This document shows, piece by piece, positions 29,762-35,904 of a stretch of DNA of 64,000 nt. The notes beneath the pieces are model-generated. The model made no database searches, had not been told where the DNA came from, and worked only from the letters and a program-made list of their open reading frames with translations. The stretch lies in assembly GCA_905215695.1 (NCBI GenBank), contig CAJMQN010000003.1, forward strand, positions 171,436-235,435. Direction: 5' to 3'. Each line of letters opens with the position of its first letter. Position 1 is the stretch's first letter. Position numbers and translations under genes: made by a program. The stretch comes from an uncultured bacterium (GTDB lineage Bacteria; Bacillota; Clostridia; Christensenellales; HGM11417).

Positions 29762-29790
29762 TTGACAATGCTCGCGTAAAGTGGTAAAAT
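29762..29790 (+). promoter_or_regulatory. Strong promoter of SipW/TasA-like operon 2
   Basis: TTGACA (29762-29767), 17-nt spacer, extended -10 TGgTAAAAT (29782-29790). Confidence 0.7.
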
Positions 29791-29803
29791 ATGAACAAAT
29801 ATA

Positions 29804-29912
29804 CGGAAAATTACACTTTTTTAAAACAAAGCGGAATAAAAAAAATCGCCCTGCTTTTTCACAAAACAGAACGATTTATTCAACTTTTGTTTGATACGGA
29901 AAAGTGTACAAT
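29804..29912 (+). promoter_or_regulatory. Pair of motif copies in the 5' leader of operon 2 (CGGAAAATTACACTTTT at 29804; CGGAAAAGTGTACAATATCGAA at 29897)
   Basis: Both lie downstream of the predicted -10. Centre spacing is 93 bp. The downstream copy centre is 27 nt before ATG 29934. Confidence 0.45.
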
Positions 29913-29933
29913 ATCGAATTGAGGGGGAAAAGT

Positions 29934-31877: not shown

Positions 31878-31901
31878 AGAAAATTCAGGAGGATAAGTAT
31901 T

Positions 31902-34577
31902 TTGAGGAAAAAGAGCGGAAAGAAATTGTTGATTTCCTGCGCGCTGTCCATTGTTCTTTGCGTGTTTATGCTTGCAGGCACGACTTGGGCATGGTTTACG
32001 GACAGCGTGACCAACGCGGGAAACAAGATTCAGGCGGGGACTTTGGATGTGTCTCTGCTTGCGGCAAAATCTGACGGAGCGGGCGGCTACGGCGCACTTT
32101 CGGATGTGAGCGAGAGCACGGAACCGATTTTCAAGGGCGAAAATTGGGAACCCGGCTATTCGACGGGGGTAAAACTCGCGGTAAAGAACAACGGAACGCT
32201 TGCGCTTAAGTACAAGCTGATTTTTGCAAATCTGACTGCGACCAAGGGTATCGAGCAGGTGCTTGACGTGACGGTTGACGGAATCGCCGTGGGGACTCTG
32301 GCGGAGTTCTTTGGCGGTGCGGCGTTTGATGAGGGAGTCCTTGCGGCAGGCGCAACGAGCGCGGAAAAGACTGTAGTCGTGACGATGCGAACTTCTGCCG
32401 GCAATGTATATCAGGGCGCGGCGGCAACCTTTGACGTTCGCCTCGTGGCGGCGCAGACTGCGGCGGACGCAGTCTATCCGCCGATTGACCCGATTGATAC
32501 GACATTGACCGATACGGTCGCGCCGGATACGGAGACTGTCCTTGAGAGTGTCGGCACCCCTGTAAAGGCGACTATTCCCGCGAACGCGCTCCCTGAGGGA
32601 ACTCAGGTGACGCTGTCCGTCGTCACGGAATCTGCGACTGCCGATTCAGTGGTCTATGACATCTCCTTGACAGACGCCGCGGGCACTGCACTGTCTCCCA
32701 CCGAAAAAATTCGCATTGAGCTGAATATCGGAAAAGGTTTGAGCGGATTTTCTGTCAAGCACAACGGAATCCCGATGGCGGAAGAGGACTATTCCTACGA
32801 TAACGCGACCGGGATCCTGACCATCGAAACATCCTCCTTCAGTCCCTTTGAAGTTTCCTTTGTGCGCGACGCGGCGGCGACGGTAAACGGAGAGTCGTTT
32901 GCGGCGTTGGCGGACGCGTTTGCGGCGGCAAAGCAAAATGAAGTGATATATCTTTGGCAGGACGCCGCTTTGACTGCGGACGTAGAGACTGGCGCGCAGA
33001 TTCTGATTCCCTCGACCGCGGCGGTGACATTTGACCTTGCGGGACACAAGCTCACGAGTACATATATAGGCATTTCGGTTGCAAACTACGGAACACTGAC
33101 GATAAAGGATTCCATCGGAAACGGAATTCTCCACAATACCAGCGCGGAAGTGGGGGACAACTACAGCCATGATGCAGTGCGCAACTTTGGGACTCTGACC
33201 ATAAACGGAGGAACTTTCGGCGACAGCGACATGGATAAAACCAACGCGAATACCGAACACCGCGGTGCGGCGGTGCGCAATATGCCCGGCGCGGTCTGTG
33301 AAATCAACGGCGGTTTCTTTACCTGCGGCGACAATTATTATACTTGGGGGGAGAGTACCGGCTTTTCCTACGCAATCCGCAGTTCAGGCGAACTGACGAT
33401 CAACGACGCGACGCTCTACGGCGCGATGAACGGCGGCGTATCCGCGGACGCGGGTAATATCGTCATCAACGGCGGCGACTTCTCCGTGACAGGGACAACT
33501 TCGTTCTATGTGCTTGTTACAAATAAGCGCGGCGGCGGAAACATCACGATAAACGGCGGCACGTTCACCAAGACGGGCGGAAACGGCGGATTGCTCGGCG
33601 GTTTCAGCGGAATGCCGTCGTGGGACGCATCGGAAGAACTTGCGGCGAACGGCTTTACGATTACGGGCGGAACGTTTGTGAAAGACGGAATTGCTACCAT
33701 CTATGACCCGGCTTACGAACAGCCCGTCGTTCTGCCTCAGGGCGTGACGGCGGAGACCTTTGGCACGAATGTCGCGTATGCGGACGAAATCTATTATCCG
33801 ACCCTTCAGGCGGCGGTAAAGAGCGGCGCTTCGGTGATTTACTGCAAGCCCGGCGAAACTTTGACCGAGGCTTTCACCCACATTGACGTGAGTAAAAATC
33901 TGACCGTGTACGGAAACTGCGCGACACTGACGAAGGGCGAACGGGATTTTGCGATTGATACCTATGCCAAACTGACCTCAAATATTACCCTCAACGTGTA
34001 CAGTCTCAACGGTGCGGCGGCATGGGGACAGAGAACTACCGCTTTCACGGCAAATTTAAATTTTTACAACTGTCGGAATATGAACCGTGTCTATTTGAGC
34101 GGTACGTCGGGTGTGAACAATATCACAGTCAGCGGCTGTTCGTTTGACGGGTCTGCGGAAGTAAAAGCAAACAATTGCACGATTTACTCCAACGCGAACG
34201 GAAAAATCGACGTTCTAAACACAACCTTTCTAAAAGTGGGAGAGCCGATCAATCTGAATCACAAAGCGGAGTCGGGAACACAGACAATCAACGTTGTGGG
34301 ATGTACTTTTACGGACTGTTCGACGGTGGATATCGACGCGAATGAATGGGCTGCGCCCATTCGCGTACTTTCTGTAAATGCGAATGCCTCGAGTGTCCTG
34401 ACGGTGAAGGACTGTGTGTTCACCTGTTCGGGCGAGAGGAAGAACAGTGATATTTTGCTCAACGATACAATTACGGGCAATCATGTCACGGCGGGAAGTG
34501 TGACGGCGGTCATCGAGAATTCGGGGACGGCGACACATACCGTGACGGGAGACAGAGTAACCGTCGAGGTCAAGTGA
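31902..34577 (+). CDS. Giant TasA/camelysin-family protein: N-terminal TasA-like domain fused to ~700-aa beta-helix-like region
   Basis: AGGAGG then TTG 31902. MLAGTTWAWFTDSVTNAGNKIQAGTLDVSL, NWEPGYS, KNNGTLALKYK, FDVRLVAAQ. Later there are repeated xTINGGTF/INGGFF/INGGDF turns. Confidence 0.75.
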   Translation: MRKKSGKKLLISCALSIVLCVFMLAGTTWAWFTDSVTNAGNKIQAGTLDVSLLAAKSDGAGGYGALSDVSESTEPIFKGENWEPGYSTGVKLAVKNNGTLALKYKLIFANLTATKGIEQVLDVTVDGIAVGTLAEFFGGAAFDEGVLAAGATSAEKTVVVTMRTSAGNVYQGAAATFDVRLVAAQTAADAVYPPIDPIDTTLTDTVAPDTETVLESVGTPVKATIPANALPEGTQVTLSVVTESATADSVVYDISLTDAAGTALSPTEKIRIELNIGKGLSGFSVKHNGIPMAEEDYSYDNATGILTIETSSFSPFEVSFVRDAAATVNGESFAALADAFAAAKQNEVIYLWQDAALTADVETGAQILIPSTAAVTFDLAGHKLTSTYIGISVANYGTLTIKDSIGNGILHNTSAEVGDNYSHDAVRNFGTLTINGGTFGDSDMDKTNANTEHRGAAVRNMPGAVCEINGGFFTCGDNYYTWGESTGFSYAIRSSGELTINDATLYGAMNGGVSADAGNIVINGGDFSVTGTTSFYVLVTNKRGGGNITINGGTFTKTGGNGGLLGGFSGMPSWDASEELAANGFTITGGTFVKDGIATIYDPAYEQPVVLPQGVTAETFGTNVAYADEIYYPTLQAAVKSGASVIYCKPGETLTEAFTHIDVSKNLTVYGNCATLTKGERDFAIDTYAKLTSNITLNVYSLNGAAAWGQRTTAFTANLNFYNCRNMNRVYLSGTSGVNNITVSGCSFDGSAEVKANNCTIYSNANGKIDVLNTTFLKVGEPINLNHKAESGTQTINVVGCTFTDCSTVDIDANEWAAPIRVLSVNANASSVLTVKDCVFTCSGERKNSDILLNDTITGNHVTAGSVTAVIENSGTATHTVTGDRVTVEVK

Positions 34578-34578
34578 A

Positions 34579-35904
34579 ATGAAAAAGAAAAACAAAAGTT
34601 ACGGCAAGTTGTTGCTTGCGAGCGCTGTATCGGTTGTACTTTGCGCGTTCATGCTTGCGGGTACGACCTGGGCGTGGTTCACGGACAGCGTGACGAATAC
34701 GGGAAACTCGATACAGGCGGGCACGCTGAAAATTTCGGCGGCTTCTGCGGAGGTTGACCCTGCGGCGTCTGAAAAGCCCTTTACGGTTGCGGGATTCAAC
34801 GGCGACGCGGCGTTCGGATTCGGCGCGGCGCAGAATTTGGAATCCGCAGGACCGATGATATCCGCGCAGAATTGGGAACCCGGGACGAGCGACGCAAAAT
34901 TGCTCTCTGTGAAGAATACGGGTACGCTCGCAGCGAAGATAAATCTTCGCTTTACGGTGACGGACGGGGGGCTCGCCGACGCGCTGTGGTTCGACTTTGT
35001 ACAGGTTTCCGCGGACAACGCGGTGACGGGTACGTTTACGCGCCGCCCGATGAGCACGCTCGCCGCGTTTGCGGAAGGGATCGAAATTCCGCTTGCCGGG
35101 GCGGGCTACGAAGTGCGTTTTCTCTTTCTCTACGGTATGAACGAAGGAGCAGGTAACGCCTATCAAAACGCTTCTTTCGAAGTTTCCGTGACGGTGCTCG
35201 CCAAGCAGATGAGCGCGGAGGTAGACGGATTCGGCGACACAATCTATGACAAAGATGCAGAATATCCGGTCACGGACGCGGTTTCCCTCAAGTCGGCATT
35301 GACTGGCGGCGGAACCGTGAATCTCAAGAGCAGTTTGATTTTGAATCCCGAAGACACTGCGTCGGCGGCAATAAATGTGCGTTCGGCGACGACTTTGAAT
35401 TTAAACGGTAATAGCGTGAAGATGGATTTTGGCGCGGGAGTCAATAACTTTGCGTTCGTGAATTTGGTGGGCGGCAGAGCAGGTTTGATTGTCAACGGAG
35501 AAGGCGTGATCGATACCTACGGAACGGAGTCCGGATACTGTTTCAATGTTGCGGGGAGCTCCCGGCTGCAAAATCCGAAACTGACCATCAACGGGGGCAC
35601 TTATATCGGCACGCCGACTGCGGTTAACGTAGTATTCGGAACAGCTTATATCAACGGCGGATTTTTTGACTGCCGTCCTGTGGGCAACGTGACCGAAGAT
35701 CAATACAGGTATACGCTCAACTGTGTTGATGCGAACTACGGGAGAGGCGCAACCATCATTGTGACGGGCGGTACGTTCGTCAACTTTAATCCTGCCGACA
35801 ATCAGGCGGAAGGACCGAATACAAACTTTGTTGCGGACGGCTATAAAGTGATTTCCGAAACGAAAACGAACGGAGAAATTTGGTACACGGTCGTGCCGGA
35901 ATGA
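34579..35904 (+). CDS. TasA/camelysin-family protein with C-terminal beta-helix-like extension (441 aa)
   Basis: MLAGTTWAWFTDSVTNTGNSIQAGTLKIS, NWEPGTS, KNTGTLAAKIN, FEVSVTVLAKQ. C-terminal LTINGGTY / YINGGFF / IVTGGTF repeats. Confidence 0.75.
   Translation: MKKKNKSYGKLLLASAVSVVLCAFMLAGTTWAWFTDSVTNTGNSIQAGTLKISAASAEVDPAASEKPFTVAGFNGDAAFGFGAAQNLESAGPMISAQNWEPGTSDAKLLSVKNTGTLAAKINLRFTVTDGGLADALWFDFVQVSADNAVTGTFTRRPMSTLAAFAEGIEIPLAGAGYEVRFLFLYGMNEGAGNAYQNASFEVSVTVLAKQMSAEVDGFGDTIYDKDAEYPVTDAVSLKSALTGGGTVNLKSSLILNPEDTASAAINVRSATTLNLNGNSVKMDFGAGVNNFAFVNLVGGRAGLIVNGEGVIDTYGTESGYCFNVAGSSRLQNPKLTINGGTYIGTPTAVNVVFGTAYINGGFFDCRPVGNVTEDQYRYTLNCVDANYGRGATIIVTGGTFVNFNPADNQAEGPNTNFVADGYKVISETKTNGEIWYTVVPE

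Follow-up and report, generated by a model that had tools for sequence, protein, structure and literature searches.

What might be built by an operon in which the gene for a SipW-type signal peptidase is accompanied by three genes for TasA-like proteins, two of them extended by long C-terminal passengers, and how might such an operon be switched? The question is raised by positions 29934-35904 of a 64,000-nucleotide (nt) stretch of DNA (hereafter the window) from an uncultured bacterium of the Christensenellales (lineage HGM11417; contig CAJMQN010000003.1, positions 171,436-235,435), where five open reading frames (ORFs), all on the plus strand, follow one another in the ORF listing. The reading we favour, with moderate confidence, is that this surface operon of gut Clostridia encodes a phase-variable donor-strand fibre with modular adhesin subunits. 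Transcription would start at a strong promoter and meet a 79-bp invertible segment about 15 nt downstream. In one orientation an intrinsic terminator would face RNA polymerase and turn the operon OFF; in the orientation of the window, a weak hairpin without a U tract would permit read-through and leave the operon ON. Once it is ON, SipW would strip the special signal peptides from the products of the second, fourth and fifth genes (g2, g4 and g5), and the freed, conserved N-terminal strand of each would insert into the jelly-roll of a neighbouring subunit, a donor-strand complementation as in TasA fibres. Here, g2 would supply passenger-free subunits, and g4 and g5 modular ones, whose one or two beta-helix modules would project on flexible linkers as adhesin or aggregation modules. 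Recombination among tandem paralogs at a domain boundary, together with passenger loss, would alter the displayed set between strains.

The operon and its invertible terminator

A five-gene operon behind a strong promoter had been proposed in an earlier note made from the sequence of this DNA. The ORFs, a near-consensus promoter and a strong terminator were all located, as follows.

29708-29731, plus strand: intrinsic terminator of the upstream membrane-protein gene, a stem of 10 pairs and then TTTTTTATAT; taken as the 5' boundary
29762-29790, plus strand: sigma-70-type promoter TTGACA-17(TG)-TAAAAT with a TG extension, matching the consensus at 11 of 12 positions
29934-30575, plus strand: g1, 213 amino acids (aa); the longest ORF runs from a GTG at 29904
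30572-31195, plus strand: g2, 207 aa, a TasA-superfamily subunit that stands alone and has the canonical size
31197-31877, plus strand: sipW (226 aa), encoding a signal peptidase I of the archaeal/ER type that ends in a transmembrane (TM) helix and a charged tail
31902-34577, plus strand: g4, 891 aa, TTG start with AGGAGG 10 nt upstream
34579-35904, plus strand: g5, 441 aa
36009-36048, plus strand: operon terminator, an 18-pair stem followed by a T-rich tail

The start sites of all five genes match independent gene calls on identical public contigs, and Shine-Dalgarno sequences lie ahead of the gene starts. From g1 to g5, the junctions measure, in order, -4, +1, +24 and +1 nt. Such tight spacing, which had been taken as consistent with co-translation, fits an operon and possible translational coupling, and shows nothing more specific. 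The promoter sequence is kept in two sister strains (L084 and L086), and the transcription start is predicted near 29797, upstream of the invertible segment.

A 137-nt leader had been noted ahead of g1. While a stretch of this kind does precede the gene, it is no plain leader, as it holds an invertible terminator switch between the promoter and g1.

29812-29820, unstranded: left inverted repeat TACACTTTT, the same inversion boundary in all assemblies
29821-29899, unstranded: invertible core of 79 bp in orientation A (predicted ON); its exact reverse complement occurs in same-strain assemblies
29843-29885, minus strand: intrinsic terminator, a 15-pair hairpin and T run, antisense here and facing the promoter after inversion
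29900-29908, unstranded: right inverted repeat AAAAGTGTA, the same inversion boundary in all assemblies

The inversion first became visible as a reverse-strand blastn match in the leader and then in a three-way alignment. Assemblies encoding an identical g1 protein were counted as the same strain. Among these, the window orientation was also found in samples ERZ925280 and ERZ27263763, and the opposite orientation in SRR18827327, DRR875402, SRR33020137, ERZ27252988, ERR9710150, SRR30536675, ERR13324746 and SRR31518706, such that eight of the ten same-strain samples are in the predicted OFF orientation. The boundaries at the two repeats, which are perfect and 9 bp each, are identical in all ten samples and the surrounding sequence is otherwise identical; 887 nt upstream are 100% identical between both forms, and the core alone differs. 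DNA inversion hence occurs within one strain. Both sister strains likewise carry the opposite, predicted OFF, orientation. Upstream gene calls that differ in some OFF contigs proved to be gene-caller noise, the underlying DNA being identical.

These recurrences also bear on a more trivial explanation, namely that assembly errors produced the long ORFs or the inversion. Indeed, g4 resembles a fusion of two adjacent sister-strain genes, and near-palindromic segments can confuse assemblers. However, the 9-bp repeats bound the inversion identically in ten samples, and identical 891-aa and 441-aa ORFs are found in at least four independent samples processed with different assembly pipelines, with g4 and g5 members at ≥90% identity on further contigs. 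Mis-assembly, which the earlier note had named as a way in which the long ORFs might have arisen, is contradicted by this recurrence, and we give the artefact explanation a negligible chance.

Folding suggests which orientation is which. The sense RNA of the opposite orientation is predicted to fold into a hairpin of 15 perfect base pairs (-18.1 kcal/mol, z -4.5) with U8 behind it, whereas in the RNA of the window orientation the G-U pairs become A-C mismatches, the predicted energy is -7.7 kcal/mol and there is no U tract. Since the hairpin is weak and the U tract absent in its own orientation, the window is predicted to represent the ON state, and most sampled populations the OFF state. The leader is thus explained by the invertible switch rather than by a known RNA; a riboswitch or other known RNA was considered and dropped, as an Rfam search over 29600-30100 gave nothing meaningful.

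In its layout the switch is reminiscent of Clostridioides difficile cwpV, where a promoter likewise lies upstream of a short invertible segment flanked by inverted repeats. There, it is the OFF transcript alone that forms the intrinsic terminator, and the OFF form predominates in the DNA (PMC2784873). CwpV resembles the proteins discussed here also in that it is a surface protein and combines a conserved N-terminal part with C-terminal parts that vary between strains, as the title of PMC3080850 puts it. In contrast to cwpV, with 195 bp and 21-bp imperfect repeats, the window has a 79-bp core and 9-bp perfect repeats, its terminator lies wholly inside the core, and the cargo is a five-gene sipW/TasA-like operon. 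A scan of JGI metagenomes gave 0 matches to the left junction of the switch. Upstream of related operons, the only comparable structure was an 11-bp inverted-repeat pair in one locus (L005), without a terminator or second orientation. This pair (5253-5263 and 5399-5409) is perfect, its arms are 135 nt apart, and it lies upstream of a g1-like gene; it is a possible second inverton.

TasA-like domains and their SipW-dependent signals

The third gene had been read as sipW, and this identity is borne out: its product passes the archaeal-type signal peptidase I (SPase I) model TIGR02228 (77.2 bits; cutoff 51.85), and the gene sits between g2 and g4, beside its substrates. As the score with the Bacillus equivalog model NF046067 (90.5 bits) stays below that model's cutoff of 190, we classify the protein as a SipW-like enzyme rather than the Bacillus equivalog. 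The proposed SipW-cognate signals were recovered as well, with g2, g4 and g5 scoring 21.2, 21.1 and 23.1 bits, respectively, against the SipW-dependent signal model TIGR04088 (cutoff 19). Based on alignment to the known site of TasA between A27 and A28, SipW would cleave g2 between S30 and L31, g4 between A30 and W31, and g5 between A32 and W33; each predicted site has a Phe at P2', as does TasA. The N-terminal parts of the two long proteins are accordingly divided as follows.

31902-32468, plus strand: g4 residues 1-189, comprising the signal (1-30), a predicted donor strand (31-48) and a compact TasA-like jelly-roll
34579-35217, plus strand: g5 residues 1-213, comprising the signal (1-32), a predicted donor strand (33-50) and a TasA-like domain

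With the Pfam profile PF12389 (Peptidase_M73), the TasA-like nature of these proteins is confirmed in part: g4 (25.6 bits) and g5 (28.2 bits) exceed the gathering threshold of 22.5, while g2 (12.3 bits) remains below it. The profile matches 68 of 75 g5-family members at E ≤ 0.01, and in a 662-aa relative from locus L009 it is matched from position 12 to 193 of 196. More telling were local profile-profile comparisons with hhalign, for which the TasA family profile comprised 111 sequences; the TasA query was the Bacillus subtilis sequence, 100% identical to PDB 8AUR over residues 28-261. The families of the g4 and g5 N-terminal domains match TasA with probabilities of 97.3% (E 2.3e-11) and 96.6% (E 6.5e-10), and the g2 family (147 sequences) does so at 99.0% (E 4.5e-18) over 1-207 / 1-235. 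The g2 family in turn matches both N-terminal domains over their full length (g4: 99.8%, E 2e-29; g5: 99.65%, E 5.4e-25), and its hidden Markov model (HMM) covers positions 4-208 of the former (E 2.4e-24) and 2-208 of the latter. The confident core shared by the two long-protein domains with TasA corresponds to TasA residues 2-82; at a relaxed threshold (low MAC, i.e. maximum accuracy), they run end-to-end on TasA, with the last-strand motif N.YQG....F....ATQ superposed. The claim that g2, g4 and g5 each contain a complete TasA-like domain is thus upheld by alignments from the donor strand to the last strand. AlphaFold2 (AF2) models agree with a folded unit, the predicted local distance difference test (pLDDT) exceeding 90 for g4 residues 50-185 and, in g5, being low at residues 28-45 and high in the remainder of the TasA-like domain. 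The g2 family itself counts 373 cluster representatives, and nearly all of the 150 listed are ~200-240 aa long.

The N-termini of g4 and g5 are near-identical, as had been described: residues 22-48 of g4 and 24-50 of g5 agree at 25 of 27 positions. This identity is encoded with 12 synonymous codon differences, which argues for constraint at the protein level and rules out recent gene conversion as its source. All motifs quoted in the earlier note were present, namely NWEPG in both proteins, KNNGTLALK (g4) or KNTGTLAAK (g5), and FDVRLVAAQ (g4) or FEVSVTVLAKQ (g5). The ~20 residues past the predicted cleavage site form the most conserved stretch of the g5-type family and have low pLDDT in the AF2 monomer models of g4 and g5. 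Residues 28-38 of Clostridium perfringens BsaA are reported to behave likewise (PMC11580942). Strand exchange gains indirect plausibility because this post-cleavage strand is the most conserved part, is constrained at the protein level and is of low pLDDT in monomers. Polymerisation of g2, g4 and g5, and their co-polymerisation into decorated or adhesin-bearing fibres, would follow the same principle.

On the other hand, several observations weigh against a donor-strand fibre under phase-variable control. In g4 and g5, PF12389 aligns with the N-terminal 45-100 residues only. The post-cleavage sequence of g2, LFSDKKEVNNHIEAGDL, is unlike the WFTDSVTNxGNxIQAGTL of g4 and g5, making co-polymerisation of short and long forms uncertain on sequence grounds. 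When the whole g5 model was searched with Foldseek, the top 50 did include subunits of donor-strand filaments, which favours the TasA-like assignment though at weak E-values (Saci_0406 thread, with prob 0.99 and E 0.011; AbpA; CanA; also chaperone-usher pilins), but TasA itself (5OF1/8AUR) was absent from the top 50 and no hit reached E < 1e-3. Sequence and profile searches of the PDB with g4, g5, A1 and A2 returned only chance matches, and no TapA-like initiator or cell-wall anchor was recognised at the locus. As for the switch, the ON/OFF assignment is a folding prediction, and no invertase gene lies near it, nor anywhere in the 64-kb window apart from a mobile-element recombinase, the sole recombinase found there (a large serine recombinase at 58817-60466, adjoining Mob_Pre in a low-GC element). 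RecV of C. difficile is likewise encoded away from cwpV.

These points leave room for g4 and g5 as SipW-dependent secreted or surface monomers, whose TasA-like domain would be only a stalk or secretion handle, with no mixed fibre being formed. Precedents exist in C. perfringens, where BsaB, a TasA-family protein of the sipW operon, forms no long oligomers and the large SipW-signal protein BsaC is secreted as a monomer (PMC11580942). Lack of a recognised anchor or initiator at the locus and the weak structural likeness to solved TasA-type filaments point the same way. Yet hundreds of long paralogs retain a full acceptor domain plus the ultra-conserved post-cleavage strand, purifying selection on this strand goes beyond what recognition by a signal peptidase needs, and the g5 ortholog of a sister strain is a bare 227-aa TasA-like protein, so that the TasA-like domain has a function of its own. 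We therefore rate free monomers as unlikely, though well worth keeping in mind, and continue to favour the fibre.

Comparison with the tapA-sipW-tasA operon of B. subtilis (PDB 8AUR, 5OF1) shows how far the likeness goes. Both systems have a dedicated SipW beside its substrates, the same signal type and a shared cleavage context (..TWA before the cut, xF.D after it, with Phe at P2'), and their jelly-rolls are homologous from the donor strand to the last-strand motif. They differ in that the window domain is more compact (~160-190 aa mature, as opposed to 234 aa for TasA), no TapA homologue was recognised in the window operon, and three paralogs are present, two with 230-700 aa of C-terminal beta-helix and Ig modules. 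Moreover, expression is predicted to be phase-variable, and the hosts are anaerobic gut Clostridia. The sipW-bsaA-bsaB-bsaC operon of C. perfringens is a second relative, being a Clostridial sipW operon with several TasA-family paralogs and a large SipW-signal protein, and heteropolymers of paralogs have already been suggested for it (PMC11580942). BsaC is described as a vWA-domain protein with a predicted secretion signal and stands outside the listed BsaA/TasA paralogs of that species (PMC11580942), whereas the large proteins of the window open with a full TasA-like domain. BsaA combines strand exchange with an isopeptide lock. A lock of this type was considered for the g5 family, in which the N-E-K triad is only partly conserved: the candidates, unmapped to BsaA residues, are N40 (43/74), E100 (59/74) and K120 (46/74), with N43 invariant.

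Passenger modules and their exchange between strains

Beyond the TasA-like domain, g4 and g5 comprise the following modules; the four-part division of g4 was derived from BLAST against homologues.

32496-32867, plus strand: g4 residues 199-322, Ig-like beta-sandwich spacer, all beta, AF2 pLDDT > 90
32889-33716, plus strand: g4 residues 330-605, beta-helix module A with five xINGGxF turns, AF2 pLDDT mostly > 90
33717-34574, plus strand: g4 residues 606-891, beta-helix module B, a strain-specific add-on, poorly modelled (AF2 pLDDT < 50)
35254-35901, plus strand: g5 residues 226-441, compact beta-helix passenger with the conserved C-terminal cap GYKV...WYTVVPE, AF2 pLDDT ~85-97

The spacer has a weak resemblance to a LapA domain (E 0.025). 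The three beta-helix modules are related to one another: the g5 passenger, which is kept full-length across the g5 family, matches module A at 98.6% probability (E 1e-15) and module B at 98.3% (E 2.6e-14) in hhalign, and the two g4 modules match each other at 97%. Turns of the xINGGxF/Y type occur five times in g4 and three times in g5. With the exception of module B, AF2 predicts short, regularly spaced strands in a solenoid pattern at pLDDT ~85-97. Searches of BFVD returned an unnamed Myoviridae protein as top match (E 2.7e-8), followed by pectate-lyase-superfamily, tailspike and right-handed beta-helix entries (E 2e-3 to 5e-2), and Foldseek also paired g5 with the beta-helix protein LH3 (5g5n). 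The beta-helix-like extensions that had been suspected from the repeated turns thus gain from the modelled solenoid and the fold matches, and with moderate confidence we consider the passengers right-handed beta-helix-like solenoids.

Assignment to a named family was less successful. Neither passenger reached threshold with any Pfam family, catalytic families included. Among the Beta_helix and Pectate_lyase profiles proposed as a check, PF20585 (Pectate_lyase_5) alone appeared for the window proteins, and it stayed sub-threshold as the nearest profile to the g5 passenger (17.7 versus 24.3 bits, over profile positions 4-122 of 126). Three other proteins with a TasA-like domain (P0060, P0127 and the 662-aa protein from L009) pass both PF12389 and PF13229, with passengers that may be unrelated to those of g4 and g5.

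Could the passengers be polysaccharide lyases, hydrolases or other enzymes, either fibre-tethered or secreted for glycan degradation? Pectate lyases, GH28 enzymes and phage depolymerases all have a right-handed beta-helix fold, the BFVD matches include pectate-lyase-superfamily and tailspike proteins, and a related module occurs in a dockerin (cellulosome-type) protein. Against this stand the absence of a catalytic family above threshold, the adhesive annotation of the closest profile (PF20585) and the pattern of conservation: in the g5 family, Gly and aromatic or aliphatic residues account for most near-invariant positions, to which are added a single Asp and a single Glu close to the C-terminal cap, and no conserved Arg, Lys or His set was seen. 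Because no obvious catalytic set is apparent in the g5 family, binding is favoured over catalysis, and an enzymatic role appears very improbable to us. In Lactiplantibacillus plantarum, PF20585 domains form part of surface proteins with a WxL domain, and adhesion to epithelia is mediated by WxlA (PMC13522541). The parallel to these proteins lies in the closest Pfam profile of the g5 passenger; it is a sub-threshold resemblance rather than membership, and the mode of anchoring differs. The passengers may thus have an adhesive role in the fibre favoured here.

The modules are not confined to TasA-like scaffolds. The main part of module A (window 32970-33689, g4 residues 357-596) is 50-66% identical to modules in other protein types, namely two proteins with a type IV pilin N-methylation motif and the module at the C-terminus (P0019, P0020) and three SLH-anchored proteins (P0021, P0023, P0028), and module B has a relative in the dockerin-bearing protein P0045. 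These matches suggest that the beta-helix modules are promiscuous, extracellular and presented by at least four anchoring devices. Conversely, a 484-aa protein of the sister strain L084 (7547-9001) carries a different, repeat-rich passenger (FTGTFDGGGHTIKNL..., GLUG-like by eye) without a match to the g4/g5 module HMMs or to Pfam, implying that the TasA-like scaffold hosts more than one passenger type.

Comparison with the two sister strains revealed how the cassettes vary. Flanking DNA is 95-98% identical to the window, and so, at the protein level, are g1 (96%), g2 (91%) and SipW (94%) closely similar. Between sipW and the downstream ABC transporter, however, both strains have three genes (484, 842/817 and 227/229 aa) as opposed to the two of the window (compared regions: window 31902-35904, L084 7547-12223, L086 7547-12154). 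The TasA-like domain of g4 is collinear with that of the 484-aa gene, in a 95%-identical block reaching up to 32470; its Ig domain and module A (32465-33678) share 95.6% identity with an interior part of the 842-aa gene; and module B (33678-34579) is unique to the window and missing from the sister strains. The mosaic junction of g4 lies exactly at the domain boundary. As for g5, its TasA-like domain and the stand-alone sister-strain protein of 227 aa share 88% identity, the g5-type passenger having been deleted within the linker in both L084 and L086; in L084, a remnant of the C-terminal cap persists out of frame past the stop codon (VVSETKEK*ESWYIVVPE*). All four L084 paralogs have nearly the same post-cleavage strand. 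At the level of sequence, these alignments show cassette mosaicism between strains. The mosaics together with the passenger loss indicate that the TasA-like domain is autonomous, and that passengers are gained, lost and exchanged.

Of note, a linker motif, ATQ..E.D[GS]F...YD..A.YP, is kept in both long families (g4 residues 184-195, 32451-32486; g5 residues 209-229, 35203-35265), and both the sister-strain deletion and the g4 mosaic junction fall inside it. This motif may be a recombination hotspot or a functional hinge.

Family distribution, parallels and neighbouring genes

The long TasA-domain architecture is unnamed rather than rare. At E ≤ 1e-3 and full-length coverage, the g5 family comprises 1,686 protein clusters at 35-55% identity, and g4 is represented by 683; at least 565 matching stretches were found in a one-genome-per-species collection. 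Matched lineages include Oscillospiraceae, Ruminococcaceae, Acutalibacteraceae and Christensenellaceae, and matched cultured strains include Merdimmobilis hominis, Brotomerdimonas butyrica, Lentihominibacter faecis and Hydrogeniiclostridium mannosilyticum. When 79 retrieved loci were surveyed with local HMMs, they yielded 217 TasA-like ORFs, 147 of them long (≥380 aa) and 61 short (<300 aa). Two or more long paralogs occur in 36 of the 79 loci, three or more in 18, and up to seven stand in tandem. A sipW gene lies within the retrieved DNA of 27 loci, 20 of which also have both short and long forms. In a first pass based on longest-ORF lengths, a recognisable g4/g5-type beta-helix module was present in 114 of 152 long forms.

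Several loci deserve mention in their own right. In B. butyrica (L026), L. faecis (L027) and three further loci (L009, L032, L070), sipW is accompanied by five to nine TasA-like genes in tandem, most of them 390-680 aa long, and in several species the order of a ~285-aa form, a ~181-aa form, sipW and long forms recurs. Some SipW homologues appear much longer than the 226 aa of the window (L026 4706-6019, L027 7794-8921, L010 10248-11309), at 353-437 aa by longest-ORF length, with true starts that may be further in; their extra part matched no Pfam domain. A fusion of SPase I to a DUF5305 accessory module has been noted in the AbpX preprint.

The survey bears on how short and long forms relate. 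Rather than mixing with g2, the long proteins could self-polymerise into 'bottle-brush' fibres, with g2 as a separate fibre, cap, base or chaperone-like partner. This would fit the donor strand, which is almost identical in g4 and g5 and different in g2, and the six sipW loci of the first survey that have long paralogs and no short one within the retrieved DNA. In most sipW loci, however, short forms do accompany long ones, and a 700-aa g4 passenger on every subunit may clash sterically. We deem such an arrangement quite unlikely; it would be a variant of the mixed fibre rather than a contradiction of it.

C-terminal cargo on such subunits is experimentally tolerated, at least in TasA and BsaA: fusing TasA to mCherry and MHETase yielded engineered biofilm materials that were functional (PMC12100766), and a C-terminal fusion of BsaA to FAST was reported as surface-exposed (PMC11580942). 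A natural parallel is offered by PilB and PilC of Streptococcus sanguinis, in which a small polymerising module is joined through a short linker to a bulky C-terminal functional module, and such modular type IV pilins are widespread and very diverse (PMC8179133). The g4 beta-helix module even occurs on the type IV pilin-like proteins P0019 and P0020. Yet the likeness appears to be one of design only: the window proteins have a TasA jelly-roll in place of the pilin alpha1 helix, their assembly would need no ATP-driven machinery, and neither g4 nor g5 contains the N-methylation motif PF07963 that P0019 and P0020 carry.

Another parallel is found in two-domain tip adhesins of donor-strand pili such as FimH, a role also proposed for archaeal AbpB, in which a binding domain and a pilin-type domain capable of strand exchange form one protein. 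FimH has its binding domain at the N-terminus and a pilin domain without a donor strand of its own, hence its restriction to the tip. Unlike FimH, g4 and g5 combine a donor strand of their own with an acceptor domain and could in principle occupy any position along the fibre. For AbpB, in the TasA-like archaeal bundling pili, the adhesin idea has been raised before (PMC9245690).

The systems described so far are TasA, CalY, BsaA and the archaeal AbpA/AbpX/CanA/thread/Tafi filaments, with TapA as strand-complementing initiator and the idea of paralog heteropolymers; the AbpX survey of the TasA superfamily was restricted to sequences of 100-350 aa. Long TasA-domain fusions are undescribed in the TasA-family literature that we searched. 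The novelty claimed by the earlier note thus holds for the description of the architecture, and not for its occurrence, which at 1,686 clusters and at least 565 stretches is no oddity. To our knowledge, all characterised TasA-family members are single-domain proteins of ~150-260 aa. Tentatively, and with somewhat less confidence than the preferred reading of the operon itself, we suggest that gut Clostridia possess an undescribed class of chaperone- and machinery-free TasA-type adhesive filaments, built from modular subunits with swappable beta-helices, encoded in combinatorial arrays of up to seven or more paralogs and subject to antigenic shuffling and, in at least this lineage, to cwpV-like phase variation.

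For biofilm scaffolds, filaments of the TasA family have lately come to serve as a paradigm that spans domains of life. If the long forms do polymerise, the scaffold would double as a display platform, a natural counterpart of the engineered TasA fusions and of modular type IV pilins, and would represent a candidate adhesion or aggregation organelle of the abundant, poorly understood Oscillospirales of the human gut. An invertible terminator combined with strain-level cassette shuffling is what would be expected of a structure under immune or phage pressure, and makes a surface role likely. Experimental handles are provided by the switch sequence with its two states and by the cultured relatives named above, which carry such arrays.

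The first gene of the operon belongs to a small, conserved family. Its product starts with a TM helix and a basic juxtamembrane stretch, which a Pro/Glu-rich linker joins to a conserved C-terminal domain of ~110 aa, and the same parts, with an acidic/Pro linker, are seen across the family. Homologues lie directly upstream of g2-like (~210-aa) TasA-like genes at L005 5554, L006 5622, L070 4407 and L075 1549. A long basic tail is present in four of five aligned family members and is short in g1 of the window. A role as TapA-like anchor was considered for g1 and found unsupported, since a cytoplasmic location of the C-terminus is suggested by the basic residues that follow the TM helix, together with the basic tail; the topology of the family is thus probably C-terminus inside.

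Elsewhere in the window, the low-GC segment (0.40-0.46) at 58817-64000, with a large serine recombinase, a Mob_Pre relaxase and a helix-turn-helix protein, is probably an integrated mobilisable element.

58817-60466, minus strand: large serine recombinase with Resolvase, Recombinase and Zn_ribbon_recom domains

Finally, a related genome (L088, GCA_964329145.1) encodes an identical FeoB protein followed by a solute-binding protein and three GGDEF/EAL proteins, in contrast to the content of window 9158-13500; the differing content downstream of FeoB points to rearrangement between related genomes.

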